Origin: an uncultured Muribaculaceae bacterium
GTDB taxonomy: Bacteria > Bacillota_I > Bacilli_A > RF39 > UBA660
NCBI GenBank assembly: GCA_964587565.1
Contig: CAZPLK010000002.1
Coordinates: 56,725 to 120,724, forward strand
Length of the DNA stretch: 64,000 bases
Reading direction: 5' to 3'
Below the pieces are notes generated by a model that was given only the letters and a program-made list of their open reading frames with translations, was not told the origin of the DNA and made no database searches. Below are positions 19,299-34,056 of the stretch, piece by piece. How positions within the stretch are numbered: position 1 is the first letter of the stretch; every line of letters starts with the position of its first letter. A program made the translations under genes and the position numbers.

Positions 19299-19709
19299 TT
19301 ACCTTAAAGTTATTATTTGTTTAGACAACCAAAAATAATCATTGTTTTCAAAATCACATATAAATACATAATTACTATATAAATTCAATATCCAAAAAAA
19401 ATAAGGAAAATTTGAATTAGTAATAATTACTAATGTTGAATAATTAACAAATAATAAACTTGCCTCTTTTTTTGTTAAATATAAAAATTTATTATTGTTA
19501 TTTTTAATATTAGGAATAGTTAATAGTATTTTAATGAAATTTTTAGTATTATATTTATTACACATTTGCTTATATAAACTAATGGGATGATTTATATTTG
19601 AATTTTTATAATTATAAAGTTGATATAAACTAACATATAATTCTTTTAAGTTAAACTCATAAAGTGATGCCACTTCCTTTTTTATTACAAATGCATAATA
19701 TTTTCTCAT
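19299..19709 (-). CDS. sirA: SirA (YneE)-like protein, putative sporulation inhibitor of replication
   Basis: Sits between tkt and yneF, exactly where sirA lies in B. subtilis. The N-terminus MRKYYAFVIKKEVASLY resembles the recalled SirA start MERHYYTYLIKEEFANHY. Similar size (136 aa). Confidence 0.5.
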   Translation of the reverse strand: MRKYYAFVIKKEVASLYEFNLKELYVSLYQLYNYKNSNINHPISLYKQMCNKYNTKNFIKILLTIPNIKNNNNKFLYLTKKEASLLFVNYSTLVIITNSNFPYFFWILNLYSNYVFICDFENNDYFWLSKQIITLR

Positions 19710-19751: not shown

Positions 19752-19786
19752 TGTAGAAAAAAGAATAATTTTAAACATTATTCTTT
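19752..19786 (-). terminator. Rho-independent terminator after tkt
   Basis: 10-bp stem AAAGAATAAT/ATTATTCTTT (19760-19769 / 19777-19786) overlapping the tkt stop codon. The minus strand continues TTTTCTAC. Confidence 0.6.
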
Positions 19787-21802
19787 ATATTTTTGTAATA
19801 TTCTATTTTTAATTTGAGTATATGTGAAATCACAATAATTTAAAACTTCTTCCCTCGTTCCGCTTATTCCATAATTACTAATTGTAATTAAATCACTTTC
19901 ATCTTTTACAAAGCGATGCCAACCGAAAGAGGAACCAGCTTCTATTACAATAGTTTTTACATTTGATGGTAACAATCTCTGTTTATATAAGTCCGTTTGC
20001 TCTAAAAATAGTTCCATTGAAGGCATGCTAACTACTCTTAAATCAATATTATGAGTTTCATATATTTCAACGGCAATATTATATGATGTCCTAACTTCAC
20101 TACCAGTTGCAATAATAATACCATCTAGTCTTTCCCTTTCAGCCTTAACTACATAAGCACCATATTTAACTCTTGATGGATCAGTTGTCCTTAATATTTC
20201 AACATGATTTCTTGATGCAATTAAACAATTTGTTCCTTTATTATTTAGTATTTCATGCCAGCAACCAACTAATTCCTTGGCATCAGCAGGTCTAAACACA
20301 TTAACATCAGGAGTTGATCTTAACATAGCTAATTGTTCAATCGGTTGATGAGTTGGACCATCCGGTCCTATTGAAATAGAGTCATGTGTATATATATAAG
20401 TAACAGGTAAATTCATCAATGCAGATAATCTTATCGATGGTTTTTGATAATCAGCAAATGATAAAAAAGTTGAACCAAATGGCCTAAAACCTGTCAATGC
20501 TAATCCATTTAATATTGCAGCCATTGCATGCTCACGAACACCAAACCAAATGTTTTTACCATTATAGTTTTCCTTAGTTATATCGGGTTGAGTATGTAAA
20601 TAAGTTTTAGTAGAAGTTCCTACGTCTGCACTACCGCCAATAAAAGTATCTATTTTTTCACTTAACTTTAACATTATTTTACCATTAATATCGCGTAAAG
20701 AGTCTTTTTCAAACATTAAATAATCCCACCCCATACTTACAACATCAATGTTAAAACGACTTGTTACTACATTGTTAAATAAATTATAATCACCACGATA
20801 TTTACTTTCTACATATTCTTTATAAATATCATCCCATTCATAAAAATATTTTTGGTATCGTTTACTAACTTCTTTTCTAAAATAGTCTAACGTACCTTTA
20901 GGTATATAAAATTTATTCTCGGGCAAATGAAGTTTCTGTTTTAATAATAATGTTTCTTTATCACCTAAAACTTTTCCATGCACCTCATGAGTTCCTTCAA
21001 GCGATGTACCTTTACCAATAGTTGTTTTAATTTCAATAATAGTTGGTTTTGATGATGATTTAGCACGATTAATTGCTCGATTAATTGCTGATAAATCTTC
21101 ACCATTTCTTACTAATTCCGTATTCCATCCCATAGATTTAAAACGTTCCAGTACATTTTCATCAAATGAATTTGATGTAGGCCCATCTAAACTTATATCA
21201 TTAGAATCATATAACACTATTAAGTTGTTAAGACATAGTGTTCCCGCTAATGATGCAGCTTCATATGATATACCTTCCATTAAATCACCATCACCACATA
21301 ATACATAAACACGGTAATCAAAAACAGACTTATTTGAACCAAATATTTTTTTATTATCTGTCGTACCATATTTTTCATTATTAATTTTTCCACCTAATGC
21401 CATCCCAACAGCGCTAGCAATTCCTTGCCCCAATGGTCCAGTGGAAATATCTACTCCACTTGTTACACCGTATTCTGGATGACCTGGTGTAGGAAAACCA
21501 CTTCTTCTAAATTTTTTTAAATCATCCAAAGATATATTAAAACCAGCCATATACAACATAGCATACAATAATGCTGAACCATGCCCCGCTGACATTACAA
21601 AACGATCTCTATTAATCCAACTTGGATCAACTGTACTATATTTTAAATGATTTTTGTATAAAGTATACATTATAGGAGCAGCACCAAGTACTATACCAGG
21701 GTGTCCACTGCCTGCCTCATTTATCATATCAATTGCTAATCCTTTTAAATAATTAATAGCCATCTCATCAAAACTAATCTTTGTATTTTGTTGATTTCTC
21801 AT
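19778..21802 (-). CDS. tkt: Transketolase
   Basis: GHPG, GDGDLMEG (ThDP-binding) and conserved pyrimidine/C-terminal domains, ~670 aa. Confidence 0.95.
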   Translation of the reverse strand: MRNQQNTKISFDEMAINYLKGLAIDMINEAGSGHPGIVLGAAPIMYTLYKNHLKYSTVDPSWINRDRFVMSAGHGSALLYAMLYMAGFNISLDDLKKFRRSGFPTPGHPEYGVTSGVDISTGPLGQGIASAVGMALGGKINNEKYGTTDNKKIFGSNKSVFDYRVYVLCGDGDLMEGISYEAASLAGTLCLNNLIVLYDSNDISLDGPTSNSFDENVLERFKSMGWNTELVRNGEDLSAINRAINRAKSSSKPTIIEIKTTIGKGTSLEGTHEVHGKVLGDKETLLLKQKLHLPENKFYIPKGTLDYFRKEVSKRYQKYFYEWDDIYKEYVESKYRGDYNLFNNVVTSRFNIDVVSMGWDYLMFEKDSLRDINGKIMLKLSEKIDTFIGGSADVGTSTKTYLHTQPDITKENYNGKNIWFGVREHAMAAILNGLALTGFRPFGSTFLSFADYQKPSIRLSALMNLPVTYIYTHDSISIGPDGPTHQPIEQLAMLRSTPDVNVFRPADAKELVGCWHEILNNKGTNCLIASRNHVEILRTTDPSRVKYGAYVVKAERERLDGIIIATGSEVRTSYNIAVEIYETHNIDLRVVSMPSMELFLEQTDLYKQRLLPSNVKTIVIEAGSSFGWHRFVKDESDLITISNYGISGTREEVLNYCDFTYTQIKNRILQKYKE

Positions 21803-21855
21803 TATTCCACCTCTATTATTAGTATACCAAAATAAAATATAATAATAAAGATTAA

Positions 21856-22002
21856 TTAGTAGTCGTTAATAGTTATTTGGATATTTTCATTGTTTTTTTC
21901 TAACTCTTCCATTTTCCTAACATTCACCGAGTCAAAATAAATTATAGTAACAACAAAAATCATAAAACTGATCACCATCTTATTTTTTAATAATTCTAAC
22001 AC
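21856..22002 (-). CDS. Untracked 48-aa single-pass membrane protein, candidate SOS-induced cell-division inhibitor (YneA/SosA-position analogue)
   Basis: Hand-translated: GTG start at 22002, 6 nt after GAGGAGGGG. Product MLELLKNKMVISFMIFVVTIIYFDSVNVRKMEELEKNNENIQITINDY, ending in TAA at 21856-21858. Divergent from lexA, with a LexA box in its promoter spacer. Confidence 0.55.
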   Translation of the reverse strand: MLELLKNKMVISFMIFVVTIIYFDSVNVRKMEELEKNNENIQITINDY

Positions 22003-22025
22003 AATACCCCTCCTCTATTAAACAC

Positions 22026-22054
22026 AATATATCACGAACGTTTGTTTGTGTCAA
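22026..22054 (-). promoter_or_regulatory. Sigma-A type promoter of the small divergent ORF (SOS-controlled)
   Basis: Minus strand reads TTGACA (22054-22049), a 17-nt spacer, then TATATT (22031-22026). The spacer contains LexA box 1. Confidence 0.6.
22035..22048. promoter_or_regulatory. LexA (SOS/Cheo) box 1
   Basis: CGAACGTTTGTTTG, compared with the Firmicute consensus CGAAC-N4-GTTCG (GAAC-N4-GTTY). Confidence 0.75.
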
Positions 22055-22062
22055 CCTCAAAA

Positions 22063-22076
22063 CGAACAAATGTTTG
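22063..22076. promoter_or_regulatory. LexA (SOS/Cheo) box 2, overlapping the lexA -35
   Basis: CGAACAAATGTTTG. Overlaps the TTGACT -35 of lexA, consistent with autoregulation. Confidence 0.75.
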
Positions 22077-22102
22077 ACTTTTTTGTAAAGTTATGTTAAA
22101 AT
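22074..22102 (+). promoter_or_regulatory. lexA promoter
   Basis: TTGACT (22074-22079), a 17-nt spacer ending in TGT (extended -10), then TAAAAT (22097-22102). Confidence 0.6.
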
Positions 22103-22131
22103 TTATTTATAAATATAAGTAGGAGGTGTTT

Positions 22132-22749
22132 ATGACAAAGTTAACTAGTCGTCAAAATGAAATTTTACAATATATAAAAAAATACATAAATGAAAATGGG
22201 TATCCCCCTACTATTAGGGAAATTGCTAAAGCTATGGGTGTTTCATCTACGGCTACAATCCATGCCCATTTATGTAATTTAGAAAAAAAAGGTGTTATTA
22301 AAAAAGAAAACACGAAAAATCGTGCAATTGAACTTTTAGTAGAAAATGAATATTTGAATACTGAACAAGATGTTGTAAAGGTACCTCTTTTAGGAAAAAT
22401 AACAGCCGGCTCACCAATTGAGGCTATTGAAAATCCTAATGACTTCTTTCCATTACCTAGCCATTTAATTCCAAGTAATAAAGAAGTATTTACTTTATTA
22501 GTAGAAGGCGATAGTATGATCAATGTTGGGATATATGATGGAGATACCGTTATTGTTGAAAGATGCAATAATGCCTACAATGGTAATATTGTTGTTGCTA
22601 TGACCGATGAAAATGAAGTTACCCTTAAAACTTATTATAAAGAAAAAGATCACATCAGATTGCAACCTGAAAATGATCATATGGAACCAATAATAGTACA
22701 CAACATTACAGTTTTAGGGCGCGCTATTGGATTATATAGAAAATTATAA
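22132..22749 (+). CDS. lexA: LexA SOS repressor
   Basis: N-terminal winged HTH (GYPPTIREIA) and C-terminal S24 peptidase with GDSM and the catalytic Lys region. ATG at 22132 lies 5 nt after AGGAGG; the tracked GTG overlaps the 3' end of that RBS. Confidence 0.95.
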   Translation: MTKLTSRQNEILQYIKKYINENGYPPTIREIAKAMGVSSTATIHAHLCNLEKKGVIKKENTKNRAIELLVENEYLNTEQDVVKVPLLGKITAGSPIEAIENPNDFFPLPSHLIPSNKEVFTLLVEGDSMINVGIYDGDTVIVERCNNAYNGNIVVAMTDENEVTLKTYYKEKDHIRLQPENDHMEPIIVHNITVLGRAIGLYRKL

Positions 22750-22780
22750 AAGTTAGTTTAAAACTAACTTTTTTTATTTG
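22750..22780. terminator. Bidirectional terminator between lexA and the rhomboid gene
   Basis: Stem AGTTAGTT/AACTAACT (22751-22758 / 22762-22769) flanked by an A-run and a T-run. Confidence 0.65.
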
Positions 22781-22800: not shown

Positions 22801-23952
22801 TTATATTCCAAAAAACGCTAAATATACTAAAAATACAGTGAACATTGCTGTCATTACCCAACCGTTAACCTTATCCGAAGTGGTTGATTTATACTTAACA
22901 CCAAGTGCCATTGAAATTAATACTCCACCAATCAACCCTCCAATATGTGCAGCGTTGTTTATCCCTGGCAAACTAAATCCAATTAATAAATTTATTAATA
23001 TTAATGGTATTATTTGTGATCTTATTACAGAGCCTAAATATACACGATAATGATATCCAAAATATAATAATGCTCCTAAAAGCCCAAAGATGGAACCGGA
23101 TGCCCCAGCACTTACACCATCAAAAAACAACATAGATAATAAACTTGATGTAATTGCACTAAAAAGGTATATTACAATAAATTTAGTTTTTCCATAAAAA
23201 CTTTCAAGTTGAGGACCGATTATATATAATGCATAATTATTAAAGGCTAAATGGAAAATATCTATATGTAAAAATGAACTAGTAATTAATCGATAATAAT
23301 CACCCGCAAGTATGTATTTTGGAAAACTAGCCCCAAAATTAATTAAAGTTTCAACATTTCTACTGCCATTACCAAATAAATACATCATTAAAAATAGTAT
23401 TAAATTAATTGCTATTATTATTAAAGTAACAATTGGTTTTTCCATTTTAAAAATATCTTCAGCCCGTCTTGCATCTTCTTCATTTTTTTTGTTAATATCT
23501 TTTGTTAATTTCATAAACAATTCGATTCCTTTTTCTTTATAATCTGTTTTAAAAGGTAGTTTTGGAAAGTTTTCTAAAATAACTTTTTCTTTTTTTAAAT
23601 CATCGATTTCTTTAATATTAATACATGTAATATCATTAGGCTTTAATTGAAGTTCTACATTTTCACCTAAATTTAAAAATATGTTTAATGTATTAATATT
23701 GAGTGATAAAGTTTTTTTCTTAATATCTTTCATAATTCTACTAGTTTTATATATGTCATAATTTAATTGTTCTTTATTATGTATGTAATTAGAAGTAATT
23801 CTAATTATTTGATAATCGTTATTTAAATTTTCTAACCAAATTTCTTCTTTAGCACCATGTAATACAATTGGATTATATCCTTCCTCAGTTATAAAATAAT
23901 GTAATAGTTTTATTACTAAATCATCACCTTCATTTTGAATTATTTGATTCAT
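22801..23952 (-). CDS. Rhomboid-family intramembrane serine protease with N-terminal cytoplasmic domain (GluP/YqgP-like)
   Basis: Multi-TM C-terminal half with the GASGSIFG catalytic Ser motif and the AHIGG catalytic His motif. Confidence 0.85.
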   Translation of the reverse strand: MNQIIQNEGDDLVIKLLHYFITEEGYNPIVLHGAKEEIWLENLNNDYQIIRITSNYIHNKEQLNYDIYKTSRIMKDIKKKTLSLNINTLNIFLNLGENVELQLKPNDITCINIKEIDDLKKEKVILENFPKLPFKTDYKEKGIELFMKLTKDINKKNEEDARRAEDIFKMEKPIVTLIIIAINLILFLMMYLFGNGSRNVETLINFGASFPKYILAGDYYRLITSSFLHIDIFHLAFNNYALYIIGPQLESFYGKTKFIVIYLFSAITSSLLSMLFFDGVSAGASGSIFGLLGALLYFGYHYRVYLGSVIRSQIIPLILINLLIGFSLPGINNAAHIGGLIGGVLISMALGVKYKSTTSDKVNGWVMTAMFTVFLVYLAFFGI

Positions 23953-32997: not shown

Positions 32998-34056
32998 TTA
33001 TAAACCTCTTTTTCTTAAAAAAGTCGGTATTTCTGCTTCGTTAGTTACATCTTCAATTTCTTGATGTAATTCATCTCTTCTTGTATAAGGATGGAAAAGT
33101 GGTTCTCCTTCTTCTTCAAATCCGGTAGCAATCACTGTGACAATTATTTCATCACTTAAATTTTCATTAATAACTGCACCAAATATAGTGTTTATATCAG
33201 TATTAGAAGCAGCTCTAATAGTTTCTACAACTGTTTCAACCTCTGAAAGTGCTAAATTAGCACCACCAGTAACATTAATAATAGCATCAGTTGCACCATT
33301 GATACTAGTTTCTAATAATGGGCTTGAAACAGCTTGACTTGCAGCTTCACCAGCTCTGTCTTCACCAACACCGATACCTATACCAATTAGTGCATTACCT
33401 TTGTTTTCCATTATCGCTTTAACATCTGCAAAATCTAAGTTAATTAAACCGGCGACGGCAATTAAATCGGAAATAGATTGAACACCTCTTCTTAATACAT
33501 TATCTACTTCTTTAAAAGAATCTAATAATGGTGTTGATTTATCTACTATTTCGCGCAATCTGTCATTAGGTATTACAATTAAAGTATCAACGTGTTTCTT
33601 TAACTCTTCCAAACCTGCTATGGCTCTTTCCATTACCTTTTTCCCTTCAAATGTAAATGGTTTAGTTACAATTCCAATCGTTAAAGCACCTAATTCTTGA
33701 GCAATTTCAGCAATAACCGGAGCAGCACCTGTTCCAGTTCCACCACCCATACCACAAGTAACAAAAACCATATCAGCACCACTTAGTGAATTTTCTATTT
33801 CTTCTTTCGATTCTAAAGCAGCATCACGGCCAATTTCAGGTTTTGCACCTGCTCCTAAACCTTTTGTTAATTCAACACCCAATTGTATTTTTAACGGTGC
33901 TTGAGAATTGTTTAACACTTGCAAATCAGTATTTGCAACTATAAAGTCAACACCTTTCACACCTGATTCAATCATCCTATTAACAGCGTTGTTCCCACCA
34001 CCGCCAACACCAATAACTTTTATTTTTGCTAATTGATCCATCTCCAAACCAAACAT
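32998..34056 (-). CDS. ftsZ: Cell division protein FtsZ
   Basis: [10 protein letters not shown] tubulin signature and the C-terminal IPTFLRK tail. AAGGAGG RBS. Confidence 0.97.

Follow-up and report, generated by a model that had tools for sequence, protein, structure and literature searches.

A 48-codon membrane-protein gene divergent from lexA in a small-genome lineage of the Bacilli: a LexA-boxed candidate for an SOS division inhibitor

Analysis of a 64-kb window (by which we mean the whole stretch of DNA examined, 64,000 nucleotides long) from an uncultured member of the Bacilli reveals a 48-codon open reading frame on the minus strand, divergent from lexA. Judged from its sequence conservation and from the operators beside it, this ORF is a real gene and belongs to the LexA (SOS) regulon, with DNA-damage induction itself being proposed by analogy to related systems. 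Its product belongs to a new family of sequences, and by comparison with the characterised inhibitors YneA and SosA these 48-aa proteins probably work in a similar way. Taking together its position, its regulation, its predicted topology and the presence of suitable targets in the genome, we favour on balance the view that it is a miniature division inhibitor, induced in the SOS response and acting like SosA. A small transmembrane (TM) gene opposite lexA is unsurprising to a specialist; its value lies in its size, in how broadly it varies in nature, and in the fact that a genome with four good LexA boxes only has retained it.

The small gene, its promoter and the LexA boxes

The locus contains the following features, listed by position in the window; no strand is assigned to the two LexA boxes.

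19299-19709, minus strand: SirA-like ORF (PF10747, E 1.1e-4, 23.1 bits, below the 26-bit cut-off)
19778-21802, minus strand: tkt, transketolase by Pfam, 53 nt downstream of the small gene
21856-22002, minus strand: 48-aa gene with GTG start and TAA stop; product MLELLKNKMVISFMIFVVTIIYFDSVNVRKMEELEKNNENIQITINDY
22007-22015, minus strand: Shine-Dalgarno (SD) sequence of the small gene, GAGGAGGGG (reverse complement, read directly)
22026-22054, minus strand: small-gene promoter, TTGACA (22054-22049), 17 nt, TATATT (22031-22026); 11 of 12 matches
22035-22048: LexA box 1 (Cheo-type), CGAACGTTTGTTTG, inside the spacer of the small-gene promoter
22063-22076: LexA box 2, CGAACAAATGTTTG, 28 bp from box 1
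22074-22102, plus strand: lexA promoter, TTGACT, 17 nt, TAAAAT (-10 at 22097-22102), with TG; 10 of 12 matches
22132-22749, plus strand: lexA (TIGR00498, E 6.8e-69; PF01726; PF00717)
22801-23952, minus strand: rhomboid protease of 383 aa (PF01694 plus an N-terminal extra domain), convergent to lexA

A first-pass annotation of this DNA had proposed a minus-strand ORF at 22002-21856 initiated by GTG, and this ORF is indeed present in the sequence, with the GGAGG core of its ribosome site located 6 nt before the GTG; the 9-mer GAGGAGGGG as a whole ends 4 nt before it. The predicted leader of the transcript is only about 16 nt long, and the strong SD is fully exposed within it. The same annotation had placed a LexA box in the spacer of a TTGACA-17-TATATT promoter and a second box across the lexA -35, and both assignments are borne out. 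The promoter matches at 11 of 12 positions and its -10 is preceded by TG, giving an extended -10 and a near-consensus promoter overall. Box 1 occupies 14 of 17 spacer bases, directly adjoining the small-gene -35, and box 2 (22063-22076) overlaps the lexA -35 (TTGACT, 22074-22079) by 3 nt. The pattern CGAACNNNNGTTYG has two occurrences in the 64-kb window, both of them here, against 0.03 expected, and none of 100 shuffles reaches two. The lexA product is a full-length equivalog, a self-cleaving repressor of 205 aa whose translation contains the Ala-Gly cleavage site (ITAGSP), the serine of GDSM and the lysine of TLKTYY; its true start is the ATG at 22132, the GTG at 22126 being the start of the longest listed ORF.

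Scanning of the whole genome (1.01 Mb, 27% GC, 91% complete) identifies only four sites with no more than one mismatch to CGAACNNNNGTTCG, which we refer to as good boxes. Two of these are at this locus, for lexA and for the 48-aa gene, and the other two are as follows.

C1:128211-128224: good box (at most one mismatch to CGAACNNNNGTTCG) immediately upstream of the Y-family polymerase gene (PF00817, PF11799)
C3:74154-74167: good box (same basis) just upstream of the -35 of recA

The presence of good boxes at recA and at the Y-family polymerase gene indicates that this motif is a marker of classical SOS genes; only four transcription units have such a box, the small gene among them. No good box was seen at uvrA or uvrB in the whole-genome scan with one mismatch permitted. 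The genome also contains 49 two-mismatch sites in which one half-site is intact. Among 36 loci of the same GTDB family, scanned with up to two mismatches to CGAACNNNNGTTCG permitted (4,970 nt examined, with 0.32 sites expected in total), at least one box is present between the small gene and lexA in 35 and at least two in 32, and in 27 of these 32 the boxes are spaced 27-30 bp apart. On sequence grounds, repression of the small gene by LexA is strongly supported.

Conservation of the gene and its genomic context

The reading frame is maintained in close relatives in several respects. First, all seven congeners have a 47-49-aa ORF equally far from lexA, and each begins with ATG in place of the window's GTG. 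Second, all seven have GGAGG or GGGAGG at the same distance before the start, and the promoter, in the form TTGAC-box-TGnTAgAAT, is likewise conserved in the seven. Third, the ratio dN/dS (pairwise Nei-Gojobori) is 0.08-0.33 in all 14 computable congener pairs, in which synonymous sites are near saturation, and the variable alignment columns fall 20/14/36 at codon positions 1, 2 and 3. Conservation of the frame and the balance of synonymous and non-synonymous change were the comparisons put forward in the first-pass annotation, and both came out in favour of a gene: the frame is kept in seven of seven congeners, and purifying selection is accompanied by variation biased to third positions.

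The gene extends well beyond the genus, being conserved across a large lineage of uncultured bacteria whose genomes measure about 1 Mb. A family profile was built from 19 positional homologues, and a search of 201 genomes of the same GTDB family gave matches at E<=0.01 in 119, the weak end of this list being noise; the window protein itself matches the profile at E 3.6e-18. Among the best 30 of the 119 matches, lexA is present in all 30 loci (17 of them from genera outside those used in profile building), and a divergent TM ORF lies beside lexA in 29, about 120-136 nt away after start-codon correction. When starts are corrected by the ribosome site, 36 members from this GTDB family range from 33 to 55 aa with a median of 48, and in most of them the small-gene start is located 119-136 nt from that of lexA. 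The profile under-counts the family, as three of four profile-negative genomes that were fetched have, in the same slot, a 44-47-aa TM ORF preceded by a good ribosome site (L094, L096 and L097). In one genus of the family (G016, locus L021), the 48-aa gene is replaced by one whose product has 242 aa and an N-terminal TM or signal anchor.

Searching 1.84 billion representative proteins exhaustively with an HMM returned 107 clusters at E<=1e-3, nearly all of 43-58 aa. All but one of the matches are between 43 and 82 aa long, the exception being a marginal match to a 906-aa protein (E 1.7e-4), and those of 63-82 aa align in their C-terminal part and so look like N-terminally over-extended gene calls. 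The search gave no longer relatives, whether LysM-bearing, of SosA length or of about 100 aa. Where a source carries a name it is 'hypothetical protein', from 'Bacilli bacterium' MAGs; relatives within the genus bear the label 'Mollicutes bacterium' or 'Bacilli bacterium', with a single Muribaculaceae label that probably arose in binning. Viral contigs were scanned with two patterns and phage records by one tblastn; at a sensitivity that is limited for a 48-aa query, no phage or viral copy came up.

The 48-aa gene is often overlooked, or given a wrong start, by standard gene calling. It is seemingly uncalled in the window's own genome, and public calls of its relatives (P0005, P0031, P0032, P0040, P0046 and P0047) are often N-terminally over-extended by 18-36 residues ('..LTRTxVRD..'). 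These calls apparently start upstream, within the promoter/operator region, and in the proteins inspected the extra '..LTRTxVR..' residues are the sort of sequence that translation of the operator region would give.

The order of genes in the window is lexA<>48-aa gene-tkt-SirA-like-UPF0154, in which the UPF0154/YneF-like gene follows tkt and the SirA-like ORF in a same-strand run downstream of the small gene. This matches the order in B. subtilis, lexA<>yneA-yneB-ynzC-tkt-sirA-yneF, and thus places the 48-aa ORF in the yneA slot, as the first-pass annotation had supposed from its divergence from lexA. A homologue of the SirA-like ORF, 35% identical, adjoins the small gene in locus L013. Sister families of the same class have either lexA<>57-58-aa TM ORF-tkt or lexA<>57-aa TM ORF-ynzC-like-tkt, and their 57-58-aa TM ORFs are unrelated in sequence to the 48-aa family; querying with the 57-aa ORF of one sister family yielded no named proteins. 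In family f15 (L081, L082 and L084) the slot ORF, MFNKICL...AYQLK, possibly has two hydrophobic segments and is followed by a ynzC/DUF896-like gene and then tkt, and in family f14 (L079 and L025) the slot ORF, MSFKKISEES... or its relative, is followed by tkt; LexA boxes are present at the slots of both. Family f6 has the arrangement lexA<>tkt, in which no recognisable ORF separates the two genes and the pattern used finds no box. On the other side of lexA, the rhomboid protease gene is convergent to lexA in all six congeners whose locus reaches that far and in four further loci from other genera (L017, L024, L095 and L097). In the window, it shares with lexA a bidirectional terminator at about 22751-22780.

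Could the ORF nonetheless be non-functional, either a chance ORF or a leader/uORF that serves only the transcription or translation of tkt? It is short and missed by some gene callers, and there is no terminator between it and tkt (21803-21855). These points are set against the selection on its amino acids described above, with dN/dS values of 0.08-0.33 and variation mostly at third codon positions, and against the existence of a length-constrained family of 107 representative clusters. Moreover, the gap before tkt contains TGGTATACT (the reverse complement of 21821-21829), a probable extended -10 of tkt in the window, and the corresponding gap in all seven congeners contains TGGTATAAT or TGATATAAT, an extended -10 of the TGnTATAAT type. 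This conservation suggests that tkt probably has its own promoter, with any SOS read-through being additive. Finally, the small gene also occurs at loci that lack an adjacent tkt, such as L013, L016, L017 and L023, which argues against a role as leader peptide. We regard the non-functional reading as close to refuted and assign it a very small probability indeed.

The predicted protein and characterised division inhibitors

The 48-aa protein starts with MLELLKNK, has a TM segment at approximately residues 9-23, and finishes with an acidic tail of about 24 residues ending in ITINDY. The family consensus is M-K/L-E-L-L-K-x-K, followed by about 18 uncharged residues (G/F-rich and ending T-Y), then x6-K-[LM]-E-E, a variable acidic linker, and I-x-[MI]-N-x-K at the C-terminus; the most conserved positions are K8 (93%), F13 (88%), Y22, E32, I43 and N46. 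Across the 36 members the single uncharged run has a median of 18 residues, the tail is net acidic in 24, and in 34 the positive charge is greater on the N side than on the C side. The last of these features predicts an N-in/C-out arrangement, which is probably the topology of the protein, though a juxtamembrane K-K on the C side weakens the positive-inside call. AlphaFold2, supplied with an alignment of 23 sequences, predicts one continuous helix over residues 8-46, with confidence high in the TM (pLDDT 93) and low in the tail (58-66), and conservation within the TM has no clear helical-face periodicity (100-degree signal). The single TM helix and the short tail are much as the first-pass annotation had described, the tail there being called polar.

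The product was also said to have no LysM domain, and none is found. The window protein has no Pfam or NCBIfam match at E<=1, LysM included, and a scan of 23 family members against the same two collections gave only scattered chance matches and no LysM; the tail of 24 residues is in any case too short to hold such a domain. The region has no Rfam match.

Small single-TM division inhibitors encoded adjacent to lexA, and without sequence similarity to one another, include YneA, SosA, DivS and ChiZ (PMC6851548). Inhibitors of this small membrane type are so far represented by a few cultured species and have no sequence in common, and the 48-residue family, with one TM helix and 24 residues beyond it, would be a much shorter natural version. 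It has no detectable sequence similarity to any characterised inhibitor by Pfam, by NCBIfam or in the profile search of 1.84 billion proteins.

SosA of Staphylococcus aureus is a 77-aa protein with an N-terminal TM and a C-terminus shown to lie outside (PMC6851548). Like the 48-aa protein, it is encoded divergently from lexA, is small, and has one N-terminal TM and no LysM; SosA is also under LexA control, and this control and the outside location of the C-terminus are predicted for the 48-aa protein. SosA, though without LysM, is expected from prediction to use the site on FtsW TM7 that YneA binds, via an extended helix (PMC13396833), to which the one continuous helix modelled by AlphaFold2 may correspond, and conserved juxtamembrane residues of SosA are essential (PMC6851548). 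There are also clear differences. The tail of SosA is about 47 residues long and that of the 48-aa protein about 24; no similarity to the 48-aa family is detectable, as judged by profile search, and there is no NCBIfam or Pfam match; the host is a Staphylococcus in one case and an uncultured, spore-forming, small-genome member of the Bacilli in the other; and CtpA-dependent turnover would here be only analogous. By these sequence comparisons the 48-aa protein is not a detectable SosA homologue.

YneA of Bacillus subtilis and Listeria occupies the same slot, and like the 48-aa gene has a LexA-boxed promoter and encodes an N-terminal single TM; the C-terminus of YneA is outside. The TM of YneA binds TM7 of FtsW, and its LysM domain is needed to block septal peptidoglycan synthesis, the TM alone localising without inhibiting division (PMC13396833). 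YneA thus carries an essential peptidoglycan-binding LysM (PF01476) where the 48-aa protein has none, and the operon partners of yneA, yneB and ynzC, are absent here. Homology to YneA was not detected in the profile search of 1.84 billion proteins, and this result together with the lack of LysM indicates that the 48-aa protein is not a member of the YneA family.

The first-pass annotation had called the ORF a new minimal variant, and in part this stands: it is LysM-less and shorter than both YneA (about 105 aa) and SosA (77 aa). It is not the shortest inhibitor of the kind, since SidA of Caulobacter crescentus, an SOS-induced single-TM protein that inhibits division through FtsW, has 29 aa (PMC4211646); the 48-aa protein is thus the shortest only among the lexA-adjacent Gram-positive type. 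SidA resembles it in being very small and single-TM, with SidA being SOS-induced, and differs in coming from a Gram-negative bacterium, in having its gene away from lexA, in sharing no sequence relationship with it and in being shorter still. It nonetheless illustrates that a peptide without an extracellular domain can inhibit division. DivS of Corynebacterium and ChiZ (Rv2719c) of Mycobacterium are further lexA-adjacent, damage-induced single-TM division inhibitors (PMC6851548), differing from the 48-aa protein in being actinobacterial, longer and without sequence relationship to it; ChiZ also has a LysM domain.

A proposed brake on septation and its alternatives

This walled organism possesses a full divisome, and the gene content suggests a strongly reduced (about 1 Mb) but walled, spore-forming bacterium. 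Candidate targets encoded in the genome are three SEDS proteins, five PBP transpeptidase domains and FtsZ. The FtsZ gene lies within the window at about 33082-34035, and the SEDS genes are located as follows.

C5:29407-30498: SEDS (FtsW/RodA/SpoVE) paralogue
C3:84588-85664: SEDS (FtsW/RodA/SpoVE) paralogue
C7:4-687: SEDS (FtsW/RodA/SpoVE) paralogue

PBP genes are found on C7 and C1.

A plausible sequence of events can be proposed. In undamaged cells, LexA dimers would occupy the two operators 28 bp apart; LexA on box 1 would fill the spacer of the small-gene promoter and block RNA polymerase, and LexA on box 2 would cover the lexA -35. Following DNA damage, RecA-stimulated self-cleavage of LexA would free the extended -10 promoter, itself near consensus, and the strong SD within a leader of only about 16 nt would permit rapid synthesis of the 48-residue protein. 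The lysine-rich N-terminus (of the MKELLKxK type) would remain in the cytoplasm, with one TM helix crossing the membrane and the acidic tail of 24 residues lying on the outer side. If YneA, SosA and SidA are a guide, this helix may dock on a synthase of septal peptidoglycan, the SEDS polymerase FtsW being the likeliest, and the short juxtamembrane tail, with its K-[LM]-E-E and C-terminal I-x-[MI]-N, would interfere with the synthase such that septation pauses until repair is done. Removal of the 48-residue protein would probably be by an extracytoplasmic protease; the genome has one S41 CtpA-like protease gene (C9:17847-18332), which is suggestive only. The good-box set is pared down to recA, the translesion polymerase, lexA and the 48-aa gene, and retention of the small gene in it suggests that a division brake may be core to the SOS response.

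A more specific form of this proposal can be offered tentatively, as a possibility to which we would not quite give an even chance: that the protein is a minimal natural inhibitor of FtsW-type SEDS enzymes, in which the TM would dock on FtsW, and septal synthesis would be stopped by no more than a 24-residue extracellular helix bearing the conserved K-[LM]-E-E and I-x-[MI]-N, with no peptidoglycan-binding domain. The behaviour of YneA, whose TM alone does not inhibit and whose LysM is essential, implies that 24 residues of tail may be too little, a point that weighs against the division-inhibitor reading as a whole, as do the lack of detectable similarity to characterised inhibitors, the low confidence of the modelled tail, the absence of clear periodicity in the TM and the juxtamembrane K-K on the C side. 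If this FtsW-inhibitor reading is true, no lexA-linked checkpoint effector of Gram-positive bacteria would be smaller, and the protein would offer a compact template with which to probe or inhibit SEDS enzymes. The many natural variants, with K8, F13, Y22, E32, I43 and N46 conserved, constitute a mutational map for the question of minimal SEDS-polymerase inhibition.

Two other readings accept the gene and give it a different task. The protein could be an SOS-induced small membrane protein with a role other than blocking septation, for example in modulating an envelope protease or the neighbouring rhomboid, as a sporulation checkpoint acting on SpoVE or RodA, or in membrane or cell-wall metabolism during repair. 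The reality of the gene, its LexA control and its single TM helix fit such a role equally well, and there is something further to be said for it in the three SEDS paralogues of a spore-former, in the recurrence of the rhomboid convergent to lexA (in six of six congeners whose locus reaches that far, and four loci elsewhere), and in the absence of the LysM domain that YneA needs for inhibition (PMC13396833). However, every characterised Gram-positive gene in this slot (those for YneA, SosA, DivS and ChiZ) encodes a division inhibitor (PMC6851548), and the preservation of the gene in a 1-Mb genome whose best LexA boxes are at only four sites suggests a core checkpoint role. We therefore consider a different role unlikely, while giving it some weight.

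The other reading is that of a membrane toxin, in which depolarisation would lead to dormancy or persistence and the divisome would not be targeted. TisB and DinQ of E. coli are LexA-controlled small hydrophobic peptides, and in being small, hydrophobic and LexA-controlled the 48-aa protein resembles them. These toxins depolarise the membrane and have long structured leaders and antisense RNA antitoxins, whereas the 48-aa gene has a leader of about 16 nt, no evident antitoxin RNA and a fixed place next to lexA. Such a leader with an exposed SD would appear to leave no room for the structured, processing-dependent 5' UTR of type I toxins; no conserved antisense promoter is evident, promoter-like matches being at chance level, and there is no Rfam match. 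The gene is also in single copy, fixed beside lexA and conserved over a whole bacterial family, its product has a polar acidic tail bearing conserved motifs, and the scans of limited sensitivity for a 48-aa query found no phage or viral copies. A TisB-like toxin is thus disfavoured, and we think it distinctly improbable.

With a brake on septation as the preferred reading, two lesser suggestions may be added. The 48-residue protein might also gate the sporulation septum in this spore-former with its three SEDS paralogues. As pure speculation, the rhomboid encoded convergently to lexA could be the recovery protease of the single-TM SOS peptide.
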